A stretch of DNA of 64,000 nucleotides from the sequence record PP328843.1; one strand, given 5' to 3'. This stretch comes from Escherichia phage 215Ecol030PP. The notes beneath the pieces were generated by a model that worked only from the letters and a program-made list of their open reading frames with translations, was not told where the DNA came from and searched no databases. The position numbers and the translations under genes were made by a program. Positions 11,131 to 63,162 of the stretch are shown piece by piece (the first letter of the stretch is position 1; the number at the start of each line of letters is the position of its first letter).

Positions 11131-11144
11131 TCTTTGACGATTTA

Positions 11145-11175
11145 AGGGACCTTCGGGTCCCTTTAGTTGTTTTTA
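11145..11175 (+). terminator. intrinsic terminator after gene 23 (UUCG tetraloop + U tract)
   Basis: AGGGACC-TTCG-GGTCCCT then TTAGTTGTTTTT. Confidence 0.65.
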
Positions 11176-11178
11176 TGG

Positions 11179-11186
11179 TATAAATA
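11179..11186 (+). promoter_or_regulatory. late promoter TATAAATA for gene 24
   Basis: Exact motif between gene 23 terminator and gene 24. Confidence 0.6.
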
Positions 11187-11213
11187 AATCATATAAACTG
11201 AAAGGAAAGCGCA

Positions 11214-12497
11214 ATGGCTAAAATCAACGAACTTCTGCGCGAATCAACCACAACGAATAGCAACTCAATCGGTCGCCCAAATCTCGTTGCTTTGACTCGC
11301 GCTACCACTAAATTAATATATTCTGACATTGTAGCAACGCAAAGAACTAATCAACCTGTTGCTGCTTTTTATGGTATCAAATACCTTAACCCAGACAATG
11401 AATTTACATTTAAAACTGGTGCTACTTACGCTGGCGAAGCCGGATATGTAGACCGAGAACAAATCACAGAATTAACAGAAGAGTCTAAATTAACTCTCAA
11501 TAAAGGCGATTTATTCAAATATAATAATATCGTTTATAAAGTATTAGAAGATACACCATTTGCTGATATTGAAGAAAGCGATTTAGAATTAGCTCTTCAG
11601 ATTGCAATCGTTCTTTTAAAGGTTCGTCTATTTTCTGATGCTGCAGTAACAAGCAAATTTGAAAACTCTGATAGCGAAATTGCGGATGCTAGATTCCAGA
11701 TTAATAAATGGCAAACCGCAGTTAAATCTCGTAAACTTAAAACTGGCATCACAGTTGAATTAGCACAAGATTTAGAAGCAAACGGATTCGATGCTCCTAA
11801 TTTCTTGGAAGATTTGCTTGCAACTGAAATGGCGGATGAAATCAATAAAGATATTCTGCAGTCTTTGATTACAGTATCAAAACGCTATAAAGTTACAGGA
11901 ATTACTGATACTGGATTCATTGATTTGAGTTATGCATCTGCACCTGAAGCTGGTCGTTCATTATACCGAATGGTATGTGAAATGGTTTCACATATCCAGA
12001 AAGAATCAACTTATACAGCAACGTTCTGTGTTGCTTCAGCTCGTGCCGCTGCGATTCTTGCTGCATCAGGTTGGTTAAAACATAAACCAGAAGATGACAA
12101 ATATCTTTCACAAAATGCCTACGGGTTCTTAGCTAATGGTTTACCGCTTTATTGCGATACCAACAGTCCATTAGATTATGTAATCGTTGGCGTAGTAGAA
12201 AATATTGGTGAAAAAGAAATTGTTGGATCAATTTTCTATGCTCCGTATACAGAAGGTCTTGACTTAGATGACCCTGAACATGTAGGTGCATTTAAAGTTG
12301 TAGTTGATCCAGAAAGTTTGCAGCCATCTATCGGTTTATTAGTTAGATATGCTTTATCTGCAAATCCTTACACTGTAGCAAAAGATGAAAAAGAAGCAAG
12401 AATAATTGATGGTGGAGACATGGATAAAATGGCGGGTCGTTCAGATTTGTCTGTTTTATTAGGTGTTAAGCTACCAAAAATTATTGTTGATGAATAA
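11214..12497 (+). CDS. 24: capsid vertex protein gp24
   Basis: 427 aa, preceded by TATAAATA; gp23 paralog position. Confidence 0.95.
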   Translation: MAKINELLRESTTTNSNSIGRPNLVALTRATTKLIYSDIVATQRTNQPVAAFYGIKYLNPDNEFTFKTGATYAGEAGYVDREQITELTEESKLTLNKGDLFKYNNIVYKVLEDTPFADIEESDLELALQIAIVLLKVRLFSDAAVTSKFENSDSEIADARFQINKWQTAVKSRKLKTGITVELAQDLEANGFDAPNFLEDLLATEMADEINKDILQSLITVSKRYKVTGITDTGFIDLSYASAPEAGRSLYRMVCEMVSHIQKESTYTATFCVASARAAAILAASGWLKHKPEDDKYLSQNAYGFLANGLPLYCDTNSPLDYVIVGVVENIGEKEIVGSIFYAPYTEGLDLDDPEHVGAFKVVVDPESLQPSIGLLVRYALSANPYTVAKDEKEARIIDGGDMDKMAGRSDLSVLLGVKLPKIIVDE

Positions 12498-14109: not shown

Positions 14110-15528
14110 TTATGGATAGGTATAGATGATACCAGTTTCTAAAGCAGTTTTATGAATGATGTATCCATTACGCGATTCTTGGACATCAACTTCTGGATAA
14201 TCTTTCATCATCTTCTGAAGAGTGTAACGATGCAGGTAGTATTTACTATCTGGATCTTCAGTTTTCCAATCTTTACCTTCTTCAGTCATTTTTTGGATTT
14301 CATCCATAACCCACCAACCGCACCAGATGTAAGCTGAGCTACGATGTGGAAGAGGATGAACATAAGGTAATTCACCTTCTGGTTCCGGAGCAGCTTTATC
14401 AGTTACCTGAACTTGACCTTCTGCTGTAATAGTTTTGCTATCATAATCAGCAGCAGTAACAGTTGCAGTAACTTCAATAGTTTGACTTCCAACAGATGAT
14501 GTATCAACGGTGTATACATTAGTTGACCCTTCTACAGGAGAAGAATCTTTCTTCCATGAATACGTAATTTGCGCTTCTTCCGGAGCATCCGTAACGTTAG
14601 CAGTAAATGTAGCCGAAGCATCTTGCTGAACATTAATAGAAGGAGGAGTCAATGTAACCTGTGGATTCATTGTCTTCTTATTAACTGTCAATGATACTTC
14701 ATTAGAAGTAACTTCCTTTTCATTATAATTTTCTGCAGTTACTTGGGCTACGCATTTAATTCTTTTTACTCCACTTGTAGTTGGAGTATAGTTAAATGTA
14801 GAGTTAGTTTCTCCACCAACTTGTGAATCATCTACATACCACTGATACGTAGCAGACGCTCCGTCAGGTTGAGAAGCTAATGCAGCAGTAAATTGAACCG
14901 GGGTTCCAATTACTCCAGCAGCAGGACTAGCAGGAGTTACTGCCAAGGTAGTTGTCTGTGTCTTTTTATTAACTGTCAATGATACTTCATTGGAAGTAAC
15001 GCTCAGTGCATCATAATCTGTCGCAGTTACTTGAGCTACACACTTAATTTTTTTAACTCCGCTTGTAGTAGGAGTATAATTGAATGTAGCAGAAGTTGCT
15101 TCGCTCACAGGAGAACCGTCAACGTACCATTGATACGTAGCAGATGCGCCCGATGGCTGCGAAGCTAAAGCAGCAGTAAATTCAACAGCTGTTCCGATTA
15201 CTCCTTCTGGAGGACTATTAGGAGTTACAGCTAAGGTAGTTGTCTGTGTCTTATTTTGAACTGTGATAGTTGTACTAATTTCAGCTGTTTCAGCTTCAGC
15301 TTCTGGAACTGTATTTGTTGCAACCACTTTAATAGTCTTTTGACCAGCAGGTCCTTTTAATACATAATTAAAGGTTGCTTCAGCTCCATCCTGTGGAACA
15401 TTATCTACACTCCAAGCATAGGTAATAGTTCCACCTTCAGTTTGACCACTGGGTGCAGCAGTAAACTGCTTGGTTTCATCAATAACCCCCGTTGGTGTTT
15501 TAGGAGTTATATCAACTGTAAAAGTCAT
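14110..15528 (-). CDS. hoc: highly immunogenic outer capsid protein Hoc, four Ig-like domains plus capsid-binding C-terminal domain
   Basis: 472 aa; C-terminal YIWCGWWVMDEIQKMTEEGKDWK... capsid-binding domain; two adjacent diverged 96-aa Ig-like units. Confidence 0.92.
   Translation of the reverse strand: MTFTVDITPKTPTGVIDETKQFTAAPSGQTEGGTITYAWSVDNVPQDGAEATFNYVLKGPAGQKTIKVVATNTVPEAEAETAEISTTITVQNKTQTTTLAVTPNSPPEGVIGTAVEFTAALASQPSGASATYQWYVDGSPVSEATSATFNYTPTTSGVKKIKCVAQVTATDYDALSVTSNEVSLTVNKKTQTTTLAVTPASPAAGVIGTPVQFTAALASQPDGASATYQWYVDDSQVGGETNSTFNYTPTTSGVKRIKCVAQVTAENYNEKEVTSNEVSLTVNKKTMNPQVTLTPPSINVQQDASATFTANVTDAPEEAQITYSWKKDSSPVEGSTNVYTVDTSSVGSQTIEVTATVTAADYDSKTITAEGQVQVTDKAAPEPEGELPYVHPLPHRSSAYIWCGWWVMDEIQKMTEEGKDWKTEDPDSKYYLHRYTLQKMMKDYPEVDVQESRNGYIIHKTALETGIIYTYP
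14677..15252 (-). repeat. tandem diverged duplication of a 288-bp Ig-like domain unit within hoc
   Basis: Hoc aa 93-188 and 189-284 both read KTQTTTLAVTP...TYQWYVD...EVSLTVNK; DNA about 80 percent identical. Confidence 0.8.
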
Positions 15529-16218: not shown

Positions 16219-16231
16219 AATATTTCCTCAG

Positions 16232-16239
16232 TATAAATA
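16232..16239 (+). promoter_or_regulatory. late promoter TATAAATA for uvsW
   Basis: Exact motif about 30 nt upstream of uvsW ATG. Confidence 0.55.
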
Positions 16240-16268
16240 TAGATATATTTATTACATGGTATTTAGAC

Positions 16269-17780
16269 ATGACTGACATTAAAGTACATTTTTATGATTT
16301 TAGTCACGTGAGAATTGATTGTGAAGAAAGTACATTTCATGAACTCCGTGATTTCTTTAGCTTTGAAGCTGATGGGTATCGTTTTAATCCGAAGTACAGA
16401 TATGGCCACTGGGATGGACGAATCCGTCTGTTAGATTATAATCGTCTTCTTCCATTCGGCTTAGTCGGGCAAATTAAAAAGTTCTGTGATAACTTTGGCT
16501 ATAAAGCCTGGATTGACCCACAAATTAACGAAAAAGAAGAATTATCAAGAAAAGATTTTGATGAATGGCTTTCTAAATTAGAAATCTATTCAGGAAATAA
16601 AAGAATTGAACCACACTGGTATCAAAAAGATGCAGTGTTCGAAGGATTAGTTAATCGTCGTAGAATTCTTAATCTTCCAACATCCGCTGGTAAATCTTTA
16701 ATTCAAGCTTTGCTTGCGCGATATTATTTGGAAAATTATGAAGGTAAAATTCTTATCATTGTTCCAACAACTGCTCTGACAACTCAGATGGCTGATGACT
16801 TCGTCGACTATCGTTTATTCAGTCATGCAATGATAAAGAAAATTGGTGGCGGAGCATCAAAAGATGATAAATATAAAAATGATGCACCGGTCGTTGTTGG
16901 TACATGGCAAACTGTAGTAAAACAACCGAAAGAATGGTTCTCACAGTTTGGAATGATGATGAATGATGAATGTCATCTTGCTACAGGAAAAAGTATTTCA
17001 TCTATCATATCAGGTTTAAATAACTGCATGTTCAAATTTGGTCTATCAGGTTCATTACGTGATGGCAAAGCCAATATCATGCAGTATGTTGGAATGTTTG
17101 GTGAAATATTTAAGCCAGTAACGACTTCTAAGTTAATGGAAGATGGACAAGTAACTGAGCTAAAAATTAATAGTATTTTTCTTCGCTATCCCGATGAGTT
17201 CACTACTAAATTAAAGGGAAAAACTTACCAAGAAGAAATAAAAATTATTACTGGGCTCAGTAAAAGAAATAAATGGATCGCTAAATTAGCTATTAAGCTT
17301 GCACAAAAAGATGAAAACGCTTTTGTCATGTTTAAACATGTATCGCATGGTAAAGCTATTTTCGATTTAATTAAAAATGAATACGATAAAGTTTATTACG
17401 TATCAGGGGAAGTTGATACCGAAACCCGCAACGTAATGAAAACCTTAGCTGAAAATGGTAAAGGAATAATTATAGTAGCTAGTTATGGTGTATTTTCTAC
17501 TGGTATTTCAGTTAAAAATCTGCATCATGTTGTTTTAGCGCACGGCGTTAAATCAAAAATCATTGTATTACAAACAATCGGTCGTGTATTACGTAAGCAT
17601 GGTTCTAAAACAATCGCAACAGTCTGGGACCTCATAGATGACGCGGGCGTCAAGCCAAAATCTGCTAATACGAAAAAGAAATATGTTCATTTGAACTATC
17701 TTTTAAAACACGGCATTGATCGTATTCAGCGCTACGCAGATGAAAAATTTAATTACGTAATGAAAACAGTTAATTTATAA
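16269..17780 (+). CDS. uvsW: UvsW SF2 DNA/RNA helicase
   Basis: 503 aa; Walker A LPTSAGKS and DECH box MMNDECH; late promoter upstream. Confidence 0.93.
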   Translation: MTDIKVHFYDFSHVRIDCEESTFHELRDFFSFEADGYRFNPKYRYGHWDGRIRLLDYNRLLPFGLVGQIKKFCDNFGYKAWIDPQINEKEELSRKDFDEWLSKLEIYSGNKRIEPHWYQKDAVFEGLVNRRRILNLPTSAGKSLIQALLARYYLENYEGKILIIVPTTALTTQMADDFVDYRLFSHAMIKKIGGGASKDDKYKNDAPVVVGTWQTVVKQPKEWFSQFGMMMNDECHLATGKSISSIISGLNNCMFKFGLSGSLRDGKANIMQYVGMFGEIFKPVTTSKLMEDGQVTELKINSIFLRYPDEFTTKLKGKTYQEEIKIITGLSKRNKWIAKLAIKLAQKDENAFVMFKHVSHGKAIFDLIKNEYDKVYYVSGEVDTETRNVMKTLAENGKGIIIVASYGVFSTGISVKNLHHVVLAHGVKSKIIVLQTIGRVLRKHGSKTIATVWDLIDDAGVKPKSANTKKKYVHLNYLLKHGIDRIQRYADEKFNYVMKTVNL

Positions 17781-37588: not shown

Positions 37589-38788
<1,200 letters not shown>

Positions 38789-38792
<4 letters not shown>

Positions 38793-42341: not shown

Positions 42342-42932
42342 CGTATGTTCGATTGAGCTCGCTAATTCTCAACCCGTTCTCTTATGAACTGCTGCATGTT
42401 ACCATGCAGTCCAGACTATATCACAATCCCGGAGGGATTCTCCCCATTTCGAGTCGCTTGACCCTACGTCCGAAGACTAGTCGTTGAACCTTGTTTTGCA
42501 ATTGTCGCCGTGCCATCGTTTATATGTTGATGGTGATAAATCTTTCTTATCACAATATGGACAATTCAATTGAATTCTATTTGGATTTAATTTACATCTG
42601 TCATTATGTTTTAGATAAAATCCAGGACCTTTACCAATGTGACCGCAGAAATCACATGTGATTTCTTTTTGTGCAGGATGGGTCCCGTTCTTAACCATTT
42701 CTAATGTTTTGCTGATGTTCTTTTCTTATGGTCTTCCATCAGAATCTTTAGGTATAGGTCCGTTAGCATCTATCCAAATTTTTCTATAGTTCAATTGTGC
42801 ATCCTCTTAAAAGTATAATCATATTATACTAATTAAAGGTGCAAGCAAAACCTTGGCTGCTAGTTTTCCATAAAGGACTTTCCAGCAATTAAAGGAGTTT
42901 TCGATAAACGTTACCGTTTAAAGGCGCATTTT
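42342..42932 (-). mobile_element. group I intron in nrdB with degenerate homing-endonuclease ORF
   Basis: In-frame stop right after exon 1; 3' region GACTGCATGGTAACATGCAG parallels td intron P7; splice sites placed after U (42933) and G (42342) restore a 1179-nt ORF. Confidence 0.75.
42477..42698 (-). pseudogene. truncated intron endonuclease remnant (I-TevIII-like)
   Basis: 73-codon ORF inside the nrdB intron with Cys/His cluster CDFCGH...CPYCDKK...HGDNC; too short for an intact endonuclease. Confidence 0.55.
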
Positions 42933-43608: not shown

Positions 43609-43659
43609 AAATTTTCCTCTTAGTTAATAGTTAGTGACTCGTCCATGAGTCATATTATA

Positions 43660-45924
43660 TCATAATTTACAGGATGAACAATCTTCAGCTTTTGGAGTTT
43701 CTATTTCATAATCATCAGTACCAGAACCATCACGGGTATTATGATAATAGAAATTTTTAATGCCATAATACCATCCGTATAGCATGTCATCAATCATTAT
43801 TGACATTGGAACCTTGCCTTTAGGGAAGATTTGGGGGTCATAGTATGTATTCGCCGAAGCTGATTGACAAACCCATTTCAGCATAATAGCTACCTGCGTA
43901 AGATAAGGTTTATTACCTTTCTTAGCTAATTTCCATGTATAATCATAGAGGTCTATGTTATGCTCAATATTGGGCACGACTTGATTAAAGGAGCCCTCTT
44001 TTGATTCTTTAACAGAGACTGGTCCACGTGGAGGCTCGATACCGTTTGTACTGTTAGAAACTTGGGAAGATGACTCACATGGCATAAGTGCTGATAATGT
44101 GCTATTACGGATGCCAAAGAGCTTAAGGTCTTCCCGCAGCGCCGACCAGTCACAAACGTATTTTGGAGCTGCGATTTGGTCAATCTTTTTATTGTACCAG
44201 TCGATAGGTAGTTCGCCTCGAGACCAACGAGTGTCTGAATAATATTCGCAAGGTCCTTTTTCTTTGGCGAGCTTAATGGATGCTTTAATGAGTCCATACT
44301 GTAATCTCTCAAATAGTTCATGTGTTAAATCGTTAGCATCTTCATAAGAAGCAAAGTTACTTGCCAGCCAAGCTGCATAGTTAGTAACACCTACACCGAG
44401 GTTACGACGCTTTTTAGCTTTTTCTGCTTCAGGAACTGGATATCCTTGGTAATCCAACAGATTATCAAGAGCACGAACTTGAACTTCTGCCAATTCATTA
44501 ATTTTATCTTGGTCTTGCCAGTCAAAATTATCTAGTACGAATGCGCTAAGGGTACACAATCCAATTTCAGCATCAGGGCTATTCACATCATTTGTTGGAA
44601 TAGCAATTTCACAACACAAGTTACTCTGACGAATAGGTGCCTTTTCACGAATAAACGGAGTATAGTTATTCGTATTATCAATGAACTGTACATAAATCCT
44701 TGCTGTTCCTGAACGTTCAGTCATGAGCAATTCAAATAGTTCACGGGCTTTAATACGCTTTTTACGAATATTAGGGTCTTTTTCTGCTGCTTCGTATAAT
44801 TCACGGAAACGGTCTTGGTCTTTAAAATAAGAATAATAAAGCTCTCCACCCATTTCATGTGGACTGAACAAAGTAATGTAATCGTTCTTTCCAAATCGTT
44901 CCATCATCAAATCATTCAACTGAACACCATAATCCATATGACGGATGCGGTTTTCTTCTACGCCTTTGTTATTTTTCAAAACGAGAAGATTTTCAACTTC
45001 CAAATGCCAAATAGGATAATAAGCAGTAGCAGCGCCGCCACGAATTCCACCCTGTGAACATGATTTAACTGCAGTCTGAAAATGTTTCCAAAAAGGAATA
45101 ACACCAGTATGGCGTACTTCACCTGTGCCAATCTTAGAACCTTCAGCACGAATCATACCAACGTTAATACCAATTCCAGCGCGTTTAGAGATATATTCAA
45201 CAATTGAAGCAGAAGCCTTATTGATAGACTTCAGTGAATCGCCTGCCTCAATAACAACGCATGAACTAAACTGCCGAGTTGGAGTACGGCAACCAGCCAT
45301 AATAGGAGTTGGTAATGAAATCTGTCGAGTAGATACCGCTTCATAAAAACGGATAACATGTTTTAATCTATCAACAGGTTCATCTTGATGCAATGCCATT
45401 CCAATAGTCATAAATGCAAACTGTGGAGTTTCATAAATTTGACCAGTGGTTTTATCTTTAACTAGATATTTTTCTTTTAATTGCATCGCCCCGGAATAAG
45501 TAAATTCCATATCCCGCTCGTGCTTAATTTTTGATTCTAAAAATGTAATTTCTTCTGCTGAATATTTTGACAATAATTCAGGGTCATATTTACCTTCATT
45601 TACACAGTAAGAAATATGGTCAATAAATGAACGTGGTTCATATTGTCCGTAAACATGCTTACGAAGAGCAAACATTAAACAGCGTGCAGCTACATATTGA
45701 TAATCAGGCTCTTCAACCGAAATAGAATTCGCAGCAGCCTTAATGACAATAGTCTGAATATCATCAGTTGTCATTCCATCACGGAGATAAGATTTAATAT
45801 TTTCATATAATTCATAAGGATCTACTGATGTTCCCTCAGCTGCCCAAGATAAAACTTTAATAATTTTTTGTGGGTCAAAGCTCTGAGAAACACCACTACT
45901 TTTGATAACATTAATTAATTGCAT
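43660..45924 (-). CDS. nrdA: ribonucleotide reductase large subunit NrdA
   Basis: 754 aa, T4 NrdA size. Confidence 0.95.
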   Translation of the reverse strand: MQLINVIKSSGVSQSFDPQKIIKVLSWAAEGTSVDPYELYENIKSYLRDGMTTDDIQTIVIKAAANSISVEEPDYQYVAARCLMFALRKHVYGQYEPRSFIDHISYCVNEGKYDPELLSKYSAEEITFLESKIKHERDMEFTYSGAMQLKEKYLVKDKTTGQIYETPQFAFMTIGMALHQDEPVDRLKHVIRFYEAVSTRQISLPTPIMAGCRTPTRQFSSCVVIEAGDSLKSINKASASIVEYISKRAGIGINVGMIRAEGSKIGTGEVRHTGVIPFWKHFQTAVKSCSQGGIRGGAATAYYPIWHLEVENLLVLKNNKGVEENRIRHMDYGVQLNDLMMERFGKNDYITLFSPHEMGGELYYSYFKDQDRFRELYEAAEKDPNIRKKRIKARELFELLMTERSGTARIYVQFIDNTNNYTPFIREKAPIRQSNLCCEIAIPTNDVNSPDAEIGLCTLSAFVLDNFDWQDQDKINELAEVQVRALDNLLDYQGYPVPEAEKAKKRRNLGVGVTNYAAWLASNFASYEDANDLTHELFERLQYGLIKASIKLAKEKGPCEYYSDTRWSRGELPIDWYNKKIDQIAAPKYVCDWSALREDLKLFGIRNSTLSALMPCESSSQVSNSTNGIEPPRGPVSVKESKEGSFNQVVPNIEHNIDLYDYTWKLAKKGNKPYLTQVAIMLKWVCQSASANTYYDPQIFPKGKVPMSIMIDDMLYGWYYGIKNFYYHNTRDGSGTDDYEIETPKAEDCSSCKL

Positions 45925-46794: not shown

Positions 46795-47056
46795 CATTAT
46801 GTTCAGATAAGGTCGTTAATCTTATCCCGGAATTATATCCAGCTGCATGTCACCATGCAGAGCAGACTATATCTCCAACTTGTTAAAGCAAGTTGTCTAT
46901 CGTTTCGAGTCACTTGACCCTACTCCCTAAAGGGATAGTCGTTAGGCATTTAGGTAGAACCAAAGTCCTACAATTTAGCACGGGATTGTCTACTAGAGAG
47001 GTTCCCCGTTTAGATAGATTACAAGTATAAGTCACCTTATACTCAGGCCTCAATTA
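46795..47056 (-). other. group I self-splicing intron in td, 262 nt, no endonuclease ORF
   Basis: Starts UAAUUGAGGCCUGAGUAUAAGG... right after exon-1 GGU and ends ...CUGAACAUAAUG, as recalled for the T4 td intron; only a 16-nt loop where T4 carries I-TevI. Confidence 0.8.
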
Positions 47057-47746
47057 ACCCAAGAAAACATCTACTGAGCGTTGATACCACTGCAAATCCA
47101 AATAGCCATTACGCACATTAAACTGATAGAACATATGACAAGGCGGTAATGCCATATATTTAAGTTCAGCTGGATTCCATGCAGAAACAATTTGACGCCT
47201 ATCATTTGGCAATTTTTTAATACGATCAATAACTTCTACAATTTGGTCTACACCGCCAAAATCACGCCATTGTTTTCCATAAATTGGACCAAGTTCACCG
47301 CTATGGTATCCTAAATCTTTTGCTTGATTTTCGTAATTTTCATCCCAGACTGTTTTGCCTTGAATTAATGAATCATGCTGAATTTGGTCTACACCGCCAA
47401 AATCACGCCATTGTTTTCCATAAATTGGACCAAGTTCACCGCTATGGTATCCTAAATCTTTTGCTTGATTTTCGTAATTTTCATCCCAGACTGTTTTGCC
47501 TTGAATTAATGAATCATGCTGAATTAATCGTAAATCATTTACGTTAGTACTTCCTGATAAGAACCAAAGTAGCTCAGCAATGCAAGCTTTCCAAGCGAGC
47601 TTCTTAGTTGTTACCGCAGGAAAACCTTTAGTTAAATCCCAGCGTAATTTAGTACCGAACAAAGCAATTGTTCCTGTGCCTGTTCGGTCATCGGTTTCAT
47701 AGCCATTTTCAAAAATGTCTTTAATTAAATCTTGGTATTGTTTCAT
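47057..47746 (-). CDS. td: thymidylate synthase, exon 1, carrying an in-frame 47-codon tandem duplication
   Basis: 230 codons; IQHDSLIQGKTVWDENYENQAKDLGYHSGELGPIYGKQWRDFGGVDQ occurs twice in tandem. Confidence 0.88.
47241..47522 (-). repeat. exact 141-bp tandem duplication (2 copies) inside td exon 1
   Basis: Copy 1 at 47241-47381 and copy 2 at 47382-47522 read identical by eye; short AATT-type microhomology at the junction. Confidence 0.85.
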
Positions 47747-47790: not shown

Positions 47791-48138
47791 TCAATACGGT
47801 TTAGCATCAAATTTTCTTTCGATTTCAGGAGTGAAATATAATTCTTTACCGCGTTTGGAAAAGCGACCAATAATATGATAATTATTCTCATCAAACGTAA
47901 TATTACCAATATCCATAGCTTTCAACCAAATATCGATATTTCTATCCAGCTTTATGTCAAAATTCCAATACGGAGAACTATTACCGAAAATACTGCAAGC
48001 AGATTCAGTGAAACAACTGCTATAAATCTTGTCTTTAGGAACTACTAATTGATAGACACCTTTAATAAACTGAGGACCCTGCCACTTTGGCTGTTTCGCG
48101 TCTTCTTCTAATAGAATAGGGTAATAATTAAAGTTCAT
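47791..48138 (-). CDS. hypothetical protein inserted between frd and td
   Basis: ORF track begins at GTG 48150; ATG at 48138 gives 115 aa (MNFNYYPILLEEDAKQPK...). Confidence 0.55.
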   Translation of the reverse strand: MNFNYYPILLEEDAKQPKWQGPQFIKGVYQLVVPKDKIYSSCFTESACSIFGNSSPYWNFDIKLDRNIDIWLKAMDIGNITFDENNYHIIGRFSKRGKELYFTPEIERKFDAKPY

Positions 48139-48158
48139 ATTTTCCGCCACGCGTTATT

Positions 48159-48988
<830 letters not shown>

Positions 48989-49298: not shown

Positions 49299-49592
49299 TT
49301 ATTTTTGAATTTTATCGAGCCACTTACCAAGCTTAATCATTTCTTTAGTAGCCTTTTCCATACTTCTGAACTTAACCAATAGAGGATAGGTATCGACACC
49401 CATAACTAAACTGGTTACAAGACTGTGTTCACCCACAAGCCATAACGAATACGTTTGAATATCGAGCCCGTAATTTCTGTCTTTATGGACCCGTACACCC
49501 ATCACTTCAAATTTCTCACTAGCTTTTTCTACCGCATCCAGGAAATCATCTTTAGTCATATTAGGCCTTAAAAGTTTTTCGCAAAAGTTCAA
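49299..49592 (-). CDS. hypothetical protein (frd.x cluster)
   Basis: 97 aa ORF. Confidence 0.55.
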   Translation of the reverse strand: MNFCEKLLRPNMTKDDFLDAVEKASEKFEVMGVRVHKDRNYGLDIQTYSLWLVGEHSLVTSLVMGVDTYPLLVKFRSMEKATKEMIKLGKWLDKIQK

Positions 49593-50365: not shown

Positions 50366-51271
50366 TTAAAGGTCATTCAAAAGGTCATCCAGGTCCGTGT
50401 CATCAGCACTAGATGAACTGCCAGAGCTTGAGCTCATAAAATCATCTTCAGTTTTTGTTTTGAAGTCATCAACATTGAATGCATCCAAATCATCAGCAAC
50501 TTTATCAGCTTTCTTAGCGGCAGTTGCAGCGGCACCACCCATAGCAGCAGTTCCCATAACTTGACTGAACTTAGTGCTCAGTTCTTCAAACGATTTGAAT
50601 TTATCTTTAGAAGTCATTTCAGAAAGGTCAACCATTTGTTCGAACAGTTCTTTCTGGAAAGATTCATCGTCAATGTTTGGAATCGCAGATTGATTCAGGA
50701 ATTTAGATTCGTCGTAGTTACTAAATCCAGAAACTTGTTTAACTTTCAGTACAAAGTTAGCACCTTCCCACGGACAAGTTACATCAACCGGAGTTTCACC
50801 CATTTCAACATCAACCGCAATCATTGCATTGATTTTATCCCAGATTTTCTTACCGAAGCGGTATTTAAATACTTTACCTTCGTTTTCTGGAGCAGCTGGA
50901 TCTTTTACTACAAGAATGTTAGCCCAGTAAGAAGTTTTACGTTTAACAAGACTGTACTCTTTATTGTCAGTGTTGTACAGATCATTTTTACTGATGTACT
51001 GACATACTGGGCAAGAATCGTAATCACCGTGGGTAGATGAACATGTTTCAATATACCATTTACCATTTTTCTTGAAACCGTGATTTACAAGAATTGCGAA
51101 TGGTGCTTGTTCATCATTTTTAGACGGAAGAAAACGAATTACTGCTTGACCGTTACCCGCATTGTCGAGTTTCAGTTTCCACTCGCCTTTATCTTCAGAA
51201 GAAAAACCTTTATTGCCATTCAGTTTAGCCATTTGTGCAGCGAGTTCAGCAGTAGATTTACGTTTAAACAT
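50366..51271 (-). CDS. 32: single-stranded DNA-binding protein gp32
   Basis: 301 aa; acidic C-terminal tail; zinc-binding H/C cluster; leader operator upstream. Confidence 0.97.
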
Positions 51272-51345
51272 TTTTATTTCCTTTTTAATTTAATTAACAG
51301 TTGGTGCTATGACGATGTATGACCTCATAGCTGGTCAGTGAGATA
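51272..51345 (-). promoter_or_regulatory. gene 32 mRNA leader: autoregulatory operator with pseudoknot
   Basis: Minus strand ...GCUAUGAGGUCAUACAUCGUCAUAGCACCAACUGUUAAUUAAAUUAAAAAGGAAAUAAAAAUG matches the T4 gene 32 translational operator as recalled. Confidence 0.7.
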
Positions 51346-51354
51346 ATTATAATC

Positions 51355-51362
51355 TATTTATA
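51355..51362 (-). promoter_or_regulatory. late promoter TATAAATA for gene 32
   Basis: Plus TATTTATA = minus TATAAATA. Confidence 0.5.
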
Positions 51363-51370
51363 ATAAGCAA

Positions 51371-52024
51371 TTAATACTTACAAGATTTCACAGTTTCAAT
51401 GAAAACATTTTTAGCTTTCTGTGAATCAATATTTAAAATTTTTCTATAAGCCTTTAACTTTATAGAATAATTATTCCAGACTAAATTATCAGTCTGTTCA
51501 TCATGTTTATCAATTATATTTAAAAATGAATCAAGCAAGATAAACGTCTCAAACGAAATTATGTTCGATTGCAGAAGTTTAAAAATATAACTCGACTGAA
51601 CTTTTGGATTATACTCAAAGATTTCTTTAAAAGCAGAAACTTCAACTTTTTTACTAAAATAATAGATATTCCTAATATCTTCTTCAAACTTAAATTTAAT
51701 TTGCTTTAAGCGTCCGATATATTCACGATAAAACACAAGTGCATCAGCGTCAGAGATGTCACCAATCCAAGCATCTTGGTTAGCAACCAAATTACTTATA
51801 AAGATTAAAGCAAGTTCCTTTAATTTATATTTTTCTGATAACTTCTGGAAAAAATACTTATCCCTTCGCTTTTGATAAGCGGCATCAGACACCCGCATGC
51901 ACCAATTATACTTAATTACATCATACTTTCCATTCATATGTTGTTTTATCATTAAGTATAATTTATAAACTGATTTACCATCAATGTATCTTTCACCACC
52001 AGCAGGCATGCGGAGTTTAATCAT
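51371..52024 (-). CDS. 59: helicase loader gp59
   Basis: 217 aa, T4 gp59 size. Confidence 0.9.
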   Translation of the reverse strand: MIKLRMPAGGERYIDGKSVYKLYLMIKQHMNGKYDVIKYNWCMRVSDAAYQKRRDKYFFQKLSEKYKLKELALIFISNLVANQDAWIGDISDADALVFYREYIGRLKQIKFKFEEDIRNIYYFSKKVEVSAFKEIFEYNPKVQSSYIFKLLQSNIISFETFILLDSFLNIIDKHDEQTDNLVWNNYSIKLKAYRKILNIDSQKAKNVFIETVKSCKY

Positions 52025-59351: not shown

Positions 59352-62297
59352 ATGGCTACTTTAAAACAAATACAATTTAAAAGAAGCAAAACTGCAGGTC
59401 AACGTCCTGCTGCTTCAGTATTAGCCGAAGGTGAATTGGCTATAAACTTAAAAGATAAAACAATTTTCACAAAAGATGACTCAGGTAGTGTTATAGAATT
59501 AGGTTTAAAATATGGAGGAACTATAAATGGGTCTTTAGAGGTTACAGAAAATATAACTGGAACTTTAATTGGAAATTCTAGCACAGCTACTAAATTGCAA
59601 ACACCTAGGAAAATTAATGGTATATCTTTTGATGGGTCAAAGGACATTACCTTAACTCCATCTGACATAAATGTCAATAGCACAACATTTATAAAAAATA
59701 ATGGCGAATTACCTGTTGATGCTAATTTAGATACGTATGGGCCTGTTGAAGAATATCTTGGAGTTTGGTCGAAAGCAACTTCAACCAACGCTCAACCAGC
59801 AAATAAATTTCCAGAAGAAAATGCTGTAGGTGTGCTAGAAGTATTTGTGGCCGGTCAATTTGCTGGTACTCAGAGATATACAACTAGATACGGAAATGTT
59901 TATATTCGTTCCTTGACTGCTACATGGAACGGAGTAAATGGTCCGTGGAGTGTGTGGCGAAATATTCAATCCGGTACTCGTCCACTGTCAACAACAATTG
60001 ATCTTAATGATCTAGGAGGCGCTGAACACCTTGGTTTGTGGCGAAATAGTTCAAATTCCATTGCTACCTTTGACAGAAATTTCCCAGAAGAGGGGTCGTC
60101 AGCTCAAGGTCTTTTGGAAGTATATGAAGGTGGAAACTATTCTCGTACACAAAGATATACAACCAGATTTGGTGTTGTATATACTCGTTGTCTTGCTGCC
60201 GCGTGGGATGCTTCCGCGCCTAAATGGGGACCGTGGCAACAAGTCGGTAATGTCACACCAGCGACTTTCTATGACGGAAACCTGAATGATTTTAAAACTC
60301 CTGGGTTATATAACATTTTAGGCACTGATGCCGTTATTAACTGTCCTACTGGTGAAGGTTTACCAGCCGTTATTGTTGGTTTGCTGGAAGTTAAACAGCG
60401 TGCTTCTGGTGGTGCTATTTTCCAAAAATTTACTACTGCCGGAACAGGTGCAACTACCCGCGATCGTATTTTTGAGCGCGCATATACCGGCGGTGTGTGG
60501 GGTGAATGGAACGAAGTATACACATCCTATTCTCTACCAATTACTTTGGGTATGGGCGGTATTAAATCTAACTTAGCTGAGTTAGACTGGCAAACCTTTG
60601 ATTTTGTCCCTGGTAGTATGTTTAGTGTTCCTTTGAACAAAATAAAGAACATGCCAGCTAATATGAATTGGGGCACGATTGACGGAAACTTAATTATGTT
60701 TTCTGTTGGTCCTAGCGAACATACTAGCACAGGGCGTACTGTTCAGGTTTGGCGCGGTACTGTATCCCAGACAAACTACCGTTATTTTGTCGTTCGTGTG
60801 TTCGGTAATTCTGGAAATAGAACTTGCACAGTCCGCCGTGTTGTTCTTGAAGACGGATCACATACTTGGACTGCTCAACAAAACTTTAGGGGATTGCTGA
60901 ATATCACTGCTGCTGTTAATCTTGGTGCTAATCAGAAAATTTCACTTGCTCCAGGAGCATATATTCAAGCCCCTGCTAGCGGTTCTGGTTCTAATACTTA
61001 CGCAAATCAGAATACTACCATTGCACCATTATATCAGGCCATTGACGATTCAAATAAAAACCAGTTTGCACCAATTGTTAAACAGAAAAACACTGTAAGT
61101 AATATCACCTTTGCCACTGGTATGGCTATAGGTACATCCGAATATAAGATCATTGCTCAGGGTGATTTATCCGCTAATGGAACAGCAGATGGGTTAAAAC
61201 AATGGACTTTCATGCCGTCAGGTTATTTTAAATCTCCAGGGCGTGTATATGTCGGTGATGCGTTCCTTAATACAGATGGTAATATTGCCGGTTCAATCTG
61301 GAAGAAATATAACAATGCGACAAATTTAGATGCTGCCTTGAATACTCGCGTAGGTAAAGGCGGTGATACGATGACAGGTCGGTTAACAATCAATGCACCT
61401 AATGATTCTATTGTATTATCAACAACTGCTAGTAATTCTTTGCATATTCGCGGTGACATAGACGGGACTGGTAACTGGTATATTGGCAAGGGTGGTGCTG
61501 ATAATTCGCTAGCATTTTATAGCTATGCTTCTCAGGCGGCAGTACATATCACAAACAATGGTGAGATTGCGTTAAACCCGCAAAATACCGCAATGGTTAA
61601 CGTTAACCGCGACCGTGTACACATTAACGGTTCTGGATGGATTGCTAGACAACCGGGTGATTGGGGCAACCAATGGCGAGTAGAAGCTCCATTATTCGTC
61701 GATCATGGTTATGTTTCACAGGATTGTTATTATCCTATTCTTAAAGCAAGAAGCGTTATAACCAATCAAGGATATAGCACCTCTGTTGACTTTGGTATGC
61801 GTCGTACTCCATCACAGTGGGGGCAAGCAATCATTCGTGTCGGATCCACGGAGGCTTCTCCTGATGCTGGACACCCACAAGCTGTGTTTGCATTCCATCA
61901 TGATGGATTCTTTTATACACCAGGAAATGGTAGCTTTAGCGATGTGTATATTCGTTCTGATGGTCGTCTTAAGATTAATAAAAAAGAGCTAGAAAACGGA
62001 GCGGTCGAAAAAGTTTGCCGACTGAAAGTTTATATTTACGATAAAGTTAAGTCTATTAAAGACCGTAGTGTTATTAAACGTGAAGTTGGTATTATTGCTC
62101 AGGATCTTGAAAAGGAATTACCGGAAGCTGTATCTAAAGTTGAAGTTGATGGATCTGATGTTCTGACAATTTCTAACTCTGCTGTGAATGCTCTTTTAAT
62201 TAAAGCTATTCAGGAAATGAGTGAGGAAATTAAAGAATTGAAAACGCCTCTCTTTACTAAAATTGCTCGCAAAATTAGTAAATATTTTAAATTCTAA
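59352..62297 (+). CDS. 37: long tail fibre distal subunit gp37 (T2-type, with C-terminal intramolecular chaperone domain)
   Basis: 981 aa; N-terminus [13 protein letters not shown] conserved; C-terminal 113 aa begin SDGRLK. Confidence 0.9.
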
Positions 62298-62302
62298 CAA
62301 CA

Positions 62303-62320
62303 AGGGGGAAATGCCCCCTT
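62303..62320 (+). terminator. stem-loop after gene 37
   Basis: AGGGGG-AAATG-CCCCCT between 37 stop and 38 start. Confidence 0.45.
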
Positions 62321-62333
62321 TGGAGTATAAATT

Positions 62334-63131
62334 ATGGCAGTAGTTGGAGTTCCTGGCTGGATTGGAAGTTCAGCCGTAAATGAAACAGGACAGCGCTGGA
62401 TGAGTCAAGCGGCTGGTCAATTAAGATTGGGTGTTCCTTGCTGGATGAGTCAATTTGCAGGTCGCTCACGAGAAATTATTCACACGCTTGGAGCAGACCA
62501 TAACTTCAATGGTCAATGGTTCCGAGATAGATGTTTTGAGGCAGGTAATGCACCTATAGTGTTTAATATTACAGGTGATTTAGTATCATATTCTAAAGAT
62601 GTTCCTTTATTCTTCATGTACGGAGATACACCAAATGAATATGTTCAGTTAAATATTATTGGCGCTCATATGTGGGGTAGAGGTGGACAAGGTGGATGGA
62701 CTCATTCCGGTGGAGATGGTAATGGACAACAAGGCGGGCATTGTATTCAAAACGACATTGGTGGACGATTAAGAATTAACAACGGTGGAGTAATTTGCGG
62801 TGGAGGTGGCGGTGGTGGCGGTATCGCTTATCGTCCTCACTCTGGCGCAAACTGGCAGGATATTGGTGGCGGTGGAGGAAGACCATTTGGCCCAGGAGGT
62901 GGCGGTGGTTATTCAGGAGGTGCTGCTTCTTATGACGGCCCAGGAGGTGGTTATAATTATGGTAATGCTCATTCTGGTCAGGGCGGTGATGCCGGAGGAA
63001 ATGGACAAAATGCCTGGTCTGATGGCGGTAAAGTACTAAAAGTCGGTGCAGGAGGAGCAGCAGGTTATGCTGTCATAGGATCTGCTCCAACTTGGCAAAA
63101 TGTTGGAGTAATATATGGTCCAAGAGTATAA
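62334..63131 (+). CDS. 38: gp38 receptor-binding adhesin with glycine-rich motifs (T2/S16 type)
   Basis: 265 aa; GGGGGGGG, GGGGG and GGGGG runs separated by variable segments. Confidence 0.85.
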
Positions 63132-63162
63132 TTTTGAATAAATACCCCTAAAAGGAGGGTCT

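Follow-up and report, generated by a model that had tools for sequence, protein, structure and literature searches.

The window, by which is meant the whole 64-kb stretch of DNA analysed here, is part of the genome of a Tequatrovirus (a T4-like phage), Escherichia phage 215Ecol030PP (PP328843.1). It spans gene 15/16, head and baseplate genes, the alt-30-cd-pseT-nrd-td-frd-32-59 region, and the tail-fibre genes and t, and blastn showed it to be collinear with positions 95378–161058 of T4 (NC_000866) at 92–98% identity. This synteny with T4, which the original prediction had proposed as a check, was broken exactly at the three junctions that it had singled out: 23/24, inh/uvsW and 32/59, where T4 carries segD, segE and segG, respectively. 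The T4 positions that it gave agree with the T4 annotation and with Table 1 of the review by Edgell et al. (PMC2988022); gaps put at about 80, 50 and 100 bp measured 83, 50 and 99 bp from ORF coordinates. The junctions, and the flanking genes that bear on their interpretation, are as follows.

11131–11213, plus strand: gene 23/24 spacer, 83 bp, the empty segD site, between the end of gene 23 (11130) and the start of gene 24 (11214)
16219–16268, divergent: inh/uvsW spacer, 50 bp, the empty segE site, between the start of inh (minus strand, 16218) and the start of uvsW (16269)
16269–16407, plus strand: first 139 nt of uvsW, of the segE-less haplotype, with dense, mostly synonymous differences from the segE-linked allele
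50366–51271, minus strand: gene 32 (ssDNA-binding protein, 301 aa), the target of SegG in T2; a mosaic of T2 and T4 alleles, T4-type at its 5′ end
51272–51370, minus strand: gene 32/59 spacer, 99 bp, the empty segG site, between the start of gene 32 (51271) and the stop codon of gene 59, beginning at 51371
51371–52024, minus strand: gene 59 (helicase loader), bordering the empty segG site on its upstream side

At each site a short unaligned stretch of the window stood in blastn for a much longer stretch of T4: 60 bp at 11142–11201 for 789 bp (T4 106522–107310), 19 bp at 16256–16274 for 635 bp (T4 112045–112679), and 35 bp at 51335–51369 for 623 bp (T4 147919–148541). The T4 annotation places segD at 106561–107232 on the minus strand, segE at 112057–112674 and segG at 147909–148541. 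The window thus shares with T4 the three sites and their flanking genes, and is collinear with it on both sides of each, but the homing endonuclease gene itself is exactly absent. As this is a comparison of presence with absence, chance is of no concern for the three compact junctions.

T2 is the classical seg-less partner in T4 × T2 crosses, and the window aligned with T2 (AP018813) straight through all three junctions. The T2 spacers are likewise 83, 50 and 99 bp long, and identical to those of the window at 81/83, 50/50 and 99/99 positions. Gene order is also the same, but overall identity is 92–96%, so the window is not T2. Moreover, T2 is without the td and nrdB introns, both of which are present in the window (that of td without an ORF), and the T4-type 5′ ends of gene 32 and nrdB found here are not those of T2. 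Megablast against 50,697 phage records returned hundreds of Tequatrovirus genomes at 95–99% identity and no record at ≥99% over the regions tested; by these matches the phage is an ordinary mosaic of its genus, distinct from any listed record.

Differences from T4 were also seen in hoc and the tail fibre. The product of hoc (14110–15528, minus strand) has 472 aa and additional Ig/PKD-like repeat content, the T4 protein being 376 aa long; the internal overlap of the gene in the blastn alignment with T4 is consistent with one additional domain, and hoc is of similar length in phages 132, IME340 and SA20RB. The DNA of the distal part of gene 37 and of gene 38 (59506–63138) is unrelated to that of T4. 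Since the 265-aa gp38 matches the Pfam GP38 adhesin family, it is assigned as a T2-type adhesin, and not a T4-type assembly chaperone; T2 likewise has an adhesin-type gp38.

No ORF, and so no seg-type GIY-YIG ORF (~200 aa), lies in any of the three spacers. Searches of the whole window gave the same picture. With 15 T4 seg, mob and Tev proteins as tblastn queries, nothing was found at E < 0.3 other than a remnant of I-TevIII, and none of the nine T4 GIY-YIG proteins matched at that level. GIY-YIG and HNH HMMs, built from the N-terminal domains of the T4 proteins, were searched against 880 six-frame ORFs of ≥30 aa: the best GIY-YIG score (E = 0.14) fell on denA and was not significant, and the best HNH score was E = 0.29. 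As controls, the HMMs recovered all 14 T4 genes (nine GIY-YIG at E ≤ 2.5e-24, and five mob). Seg homologs, which the original prediction had named as a finding that would tell against it, were found by neither method. Four small minus-strand ORFs without a T4 counterpart were considered as hidden endonuclease genes and rejected, having no Pfam match and matching only PHROGs of unknown function (38490–38792, phrog_2364; 47791–48150, phrog_1928; 48743–48988, phrog_3183; 49299–49592, phrog_4423). T2 has ORFs annotated at the positions of the second, between td and frd, and the third, just beyond frd.

Further signs of endonuclease absence or decay were found in the nrd and td genes.

42483–42769, minus strand: remnant of I-TevIII within the nrdB intron, with a frameshift against the already defective 97-aa copy of T4
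43609–43659, minus strand: nrdA/nrdB spacer, the empty mobE/nrdB.1 site, T2-type (57/60 identical), not listed in the original prediction
46843–47066, minus strand: td group I intron without the I-TevI ORF, ~260 nt (Rfam RF00028, Intron_gpI, 65.5 bits)

The I-TevIII match was split by tblastn over two frames (aa 1–29 at 42769–42683, aa 16–96 at 42725–42483), and the remnant also matched a PHROG described as ‘endonuclease’; the T4 annotation labels its own copy ‘defective’. No intact HNH ORF of the Mob or I-TevIII type was present in the window, where this frameshifted C-terminal remnant stands alone. Upstream, 43609–43663 stands in blastn for T4 139720–140419, so that mobE and nrdB.1 are absent. 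The segment 42373–43659 accordingly combines an intron with the lack of mobE, an arrangement that recombination close to the MobE nicking region could have produced. In td, the group I core is at the T4 site and the I-TevI ORF is gone, T4 143716–144469 (754 bp, holding I-TevI) being absent with a deletion point at ~46963 by blastn. An identical deletion junction occurs in vB_vPM_PD112, vB_EcoM_CE1 and BYEP01 at 98–99% identity, and ~30 further records match the intron as a single, more divergent piece (88% identity). At the Rfam gathering threshold this was the sole match in the window; neither the nrdB intron nor a gene 32 operator family was found. With its td intron in place, the window is without the intact exon junction that I-TevI recognises. 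The ORF-less td intron and the decayed nrdB endonuclease both figured in the original prediction, and the view that the region is largely free of active homing endonucleases is borne out, even understated, since mobE is missing too.

Exon 1 of td (minus strand) contains a perfect 141-bp in-frame tandem duplication (47240–47380 = 47381–47521, 100%), bounded by 4-bp AATT microhomology, which would add 47 aa (IQHDSLIQ...GGVDQ) to thymidylate synthase. The segment is single in T4 and T2, and all listed database phages span 330 bp here, against 471 bp in the window. Either a genuine slippage mutation, in a gene that the phage can do without, or an assembly artefact could explain the duplication. 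As the one suspicious feature in the sequence, and one that the listed database phages lack, it raises the question of whether collapsed or mis-joined contigs might also hide inserted genes at the seg sites. We regard the probability of this as negligible: all three junctions agree exactly or almost exactly with those of the independently sequenced T2, the 32/59 junction also with those of T6, RB32, PD112, Sf21, fPS-65, SHFML-11 and 235Ecol030PP, and the 23/24 spacer nearly matches RB14; mis-assembly would not reproduce such junctions.

Each short spacer would be the native regulatory region of its flanking genes. Motif scans agree with the claim that the spacers hold only promoters and operators, with the addition of a terminator hairpin after gene 23. 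The candidate elements, named by their identity with sequences studied in T2 and T4, are these.

11144–11163, with a T-run to 11173, plus strand: gene 23 terminator hairpin, 8-bp GC-rich stem AAGGGACC-TTCG-GGTCCCTT
11179–11186, plus strand: late-promoter motif TATAAATA, exact match, upstream of gene 24
Before the gene 24 ATG at 11214, plus strand: Shine-Dalgarno sequence AAAGGAAAG
16232–16239, plus strand: late-promoter motif TATAAATA, exact match, toward uvsW
Within the inh/uvsW spacer, minus strand: near-consensus late-promoter motif AATAAATA, 7/8 match, toward inh
51370–51364, minus strand: MotA-box-like TTGCTTA, putative middle promoter
51362–51355, minus strand: late-promoter motif TATAAATA, exact match
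51351–51346, minus strand: −10-like TATAAT, 12 bp past the MotA-like box
51337–51306, minus strand: T2-type H-type pseudoknot, both stems fully complementary
51305–51272, minus strand: UUAAA/UAAA repeats and Shine-Dalgarno sequence, UUAAUUAAAUUAAAAAGGAAAUAAAA-AUG

The late-promoter motif TATAAATA occurs 18 times in the window, against 8.75 expected from shuffles, and each spacer has one exact match, which would be its T4-type late promoter. The motif facing uvsW is the same in SA20RB, where it is annotated as a T4-late promoter, and fPS-65 has an annotated middle promoter at the corresponding place in front of gene 32. In the 32/59 spacer, scanning for sigma-70 promoters picked up a single match, on the plus strand, no more than in shuffles and irrelevant to the middle and late T4 promoters on the minus strand. 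The RB14 23/24 spacer equals that of the window except for one T lacking in the T-run and for the two bases at which T2 differs as well.

The leader of gene 32 has the form of the T-even translational operator. The predicted pseudoknot RNA, UGACC-A-GCUAUGA-GGUCA-UACAUCG-UCAUAGC, would pair UGACC with GGUCA in stem 1 and GCUAUGA with UCAUAGC in stem 2, with loops of 1 nt (loop 1) and 7 nt (loop 2); its 5′ end lies 66 nt upstream of the gene 32 AUG, and it is followed by the UUAAA/UAAA tract and a ribosome-binding site. This corresponds to the known anatomy of the gp32 autoregulatory operator, in which a pseudoknot ~40–70 nt upstream of the AUG is followed by unstructured repeats (PMC535899). 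No difference from the leader of T2 or T6 was detected, whereas T4 has a pseudoknot variant unlike that of the window in stem 1 and loop 2. Eight segG-less relatives in which the leader was read share essentially this sequence with the window, and in the seven annotated ones (T6, RB32, PD112, Sf21, fPS-65, SHFML-11 and 235Ecol030PP) the spacer is 99 bp long.

Taken together, these elements suggest how the junctions work. Between genes 23 and 24, the gene 23 terminator would be followed by the gene 24 late promoter and ribosome-binding site; the inh/uvsW spacer would hold divergent late promoters; and the 59/32 spacer would hold middle and late promoters and then the gp32 operator, with its T2-type pseudoknot, UUAAA repeats and ribosome-binding site. 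In T4, insertion of the seg genes would have moved such regulatory signals inside the new genes or brought them into overlap with these. No compaction or loss need be invoked for the window, where the seg genes would never have been inserted, or not co-inherited.

Alleles linked to the seg genes were sought in alignments of phages with and without them, the samples being small (4–8 genomes per class, two for segD-lacking) and the sampled phages related to each other. Among 8 segG-carrying and 8 segG-lacking genomes, the pseudoknot variant co-segregated perfectly with segG, the T2 type with its absence and the T4 type with its presence. This is explained by the T4 arrangement, in which the pseudoknot overlaps the 3′ end of segG, including its stop codon (PMC535899). 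The gene 32 promoters of T4 sit inside segG (PMC2988022), and these, the T4-type pseudoknot at the segG stop and a recoded uvsW 5′ end are T4-specific features absent from the window.

When the first 420 nt of uvsW were aligned for 5 segE-carrying and 4 segE-lacking phages, 39 columns, with almost entirely synonymous changes, co-segregated perfectly with segE, all of them within nt 1–139, and none was found beyond nt 139 in these nine phages. (A pattern scan of IMG/VR for uvsW loci gave two loci only, which were left out of this analysis.) The window has the segE-less state at 38/39 of the diagnostic columns, and its first 125 nt are identical to T2. The recoded block coincides with the reported target region of SegE, given as uvsW (PMC2988022, Table 1) and as hoc.1-uvsW of RB30 and RB52 (PMC2330249). 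Judged by its position and its linkage, the block looks like the pattern expected of an immunity haplotype travelling with segE.

These observations make it very probable that the window carries ancestral or unoccupied, T2-type alleles at the sites where T4 acquired the GIY-YIG genes segD, segE and segG, and no evidence contradicting the structural reading of the junctions as empty T2-type sites was found. The converse history, in which an ancestor possessed all three genes and each was later deleted precisely, is very improbable. It could account for the T4-type, endonuclease-linked alleles that lie beside two empty sites (gene 32 columns 52–66 and the first 135 nt of nrdB), and homing endonuclease genes do decay, as have I-TevIII and mobA (PMC2988022). 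However, the spacers are T2 alleles (81/83, 50/50 and 99/99), including the T2-type pseudoknot linked to segG absence in the 8+8 genomes, and the segE-less uvsW block is intact. Deletion of segG would be expected to leave behind a pseudoknot of the T4 type and to take with it the gene 32 promoters that lie inside segG (PMC2988022), a deleterious change, yet neither seg-derived nucleotides nor residual segG 3′ sequence were seen at the junctions. Recombination among co-circulating alleles is also a far more parsimonious account than three independent base-perfect deletions.

The unoccupied sites are accompanied by a more complex pattern at gene 32 and nrdB. The first ~234 nt of gene 32 are T4-type in the window, including a 3-nt indel at columns 64–66, and this 5′ allele (columns 52–66) was present in 6/8 segG-carrying genomes and in 1/8 lacking segG. 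No column among the 86 variable ones in the gene 32 coding sequence separated the two classes in these 8+8 genomes. In nrdB, compared between T2 and T4 only, the first 135 nt are T4-type: nt 6–135 match T4 at 30/30 polymorphic sites and T2 at none.

Such a pattern may reflect past attacks by T4-type donors that converted the 5′ ends of gene 32 and of nrdB, the latter with its intron, in tracts that stopped before the endonuclease gene; we consider this unlikely, if by no means far-fetched. The skewed distribution of the gene 32 allele would fit, as would nrdB, which is T4-type at the 30 sites and has the intron, yet is without mobE and has a T2-type nrdA-nrdB spacer. Mosaic co-conversion tracts have been described in the literature, and a study of nrdB recovered progeny with mobE but without the intron. 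Cleavage sites lie hundreds of bp from the endonuclease gene, whose inheritance needs resection into flanking homology (PMC2790892). However, ordinary homologous recombination among T-even phages yields the same mosaics without an endonuclease, and gene 32 alleles have been reshuffled in genomes with segG as well as in those without it. The nrdB evidence is a two-phage comparison. Liu et al., in 2003, reportedly placed SegG cleavage 332 bp from the insertion site. If incomplete conversion did occur, partial immunity would be expected at gene 32 and nrdB, with uvsW still naive, and the phage would offer a natural test case for immunity alleles that spread ahead of selfish genes.

At the segD site no linked haplotype block was present in the last 400 nt of gene 23 or the first 400 nt of gene 24, class differences between 4 segD-carrying and 2 segD-lacking phages being limited to spacer-adjacent positions and one coding column. 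SegD is listed at the 23/24 junction with its target unknown, and T4 segD, which runs antisense to the genes on either side, is probably expressed only poorly (PMC2988022, with Table 1).

Empty sites are common in the genus, a point absent from the original prediction. T4 segG DNA was found in 142 phage records, segD DNA in 55 and segE DNA in 159, compared with ~500 Tequatrovirus records that matched the flanking genes at 95–99%; the resulting proportions (~28%, ~11% and ~32%, respectively) are rough, as the counts include duplicate RefSeq and GenBank entries. On these counts, each of the three seg genes is missing from most of the genus.

The three empty junctions are, in this respect, ordinary and already-known biology. 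Variable presence of seg, mob and intron endonuclease genes among T-even phages has been known since the 1990s–2000s, and seg-less alleles such as those of T2 are textbook recipients in marker-exclusion experiments. Work on the free-standing GIY-YIG homing endonuclease genes of T4 and on ‘intronless homing’ includes that of Belle (2002), Liu (2003) and Kadyrov (1997), and is reviewed in PMC2988022. Variable presence of ORF 32.1 (segG) had itself been noted by 2004 (PMC535899). In intronless homing, the free-standing endonuclease of a donor cuts the recipient near, rather than at, its own insertion site, and repair from donor DNA co-converts flanking markers (PMC2988022, PMC2330249, PMC2790892). 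Local exclusion has precedents in T2 gene 32 (SegG), T2 gene 56 (SegF) and the uvsW region of RB30 (SegE) (PMC2330249, PMC2988022).

Without endonuclease genes of its own, the phage would be a potential recipient in this process. On co-infection with T4, SegE and probably SegG would cut the uvsW 5′ end and gene 32, respectively, and repair from T4 DNA would then replace local markers. The original prediction had expected marker exclusion by T4 in general, and the alleles read here suggest that susceptibility would differ between the three sites. The prediction is best supported for uvsW: with the segE-less haplotype at 38/39 columns, in the reported target region, exclusion of uvsW markers by SegE is likely, and the phage could serve as a recipient in SegE homing. 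For gene 32, whose target status and junction are recorded for SegG (PMC2988022, Table 1), exclusion by T4 is plausible by analogy with T2, which has an identical spacer and is excluded by SegG, but the sequence gives no firmer pointer, gene 32 being mosaic and none of its columns diagnostic of segG in the 8+8 genomes; the phage is possibly usable as a SegG-homing recipient. SegD is not expected to exclude gene 24 markers, given the lack of a linked block and the probable poor expression of segD, and given that, as Sokolov et al. reportedly found in 2018 (in Virology), the SegD site is identical in phages with and without segD and SegD initiates no homing.

The seg-less junctions thus matter little beyond correct annotation, but the three spacers do deserve to be annotated as regulatory regions, with a terminator, late and middle promoters, and the gp32 operator. 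The co-segregation of the uvsW block with segE, and of the pseudoknot with segG, identifies haplotypes linked to homing endonuclease genes that could be mined across the ~500 sequenced Tequatroviruses.
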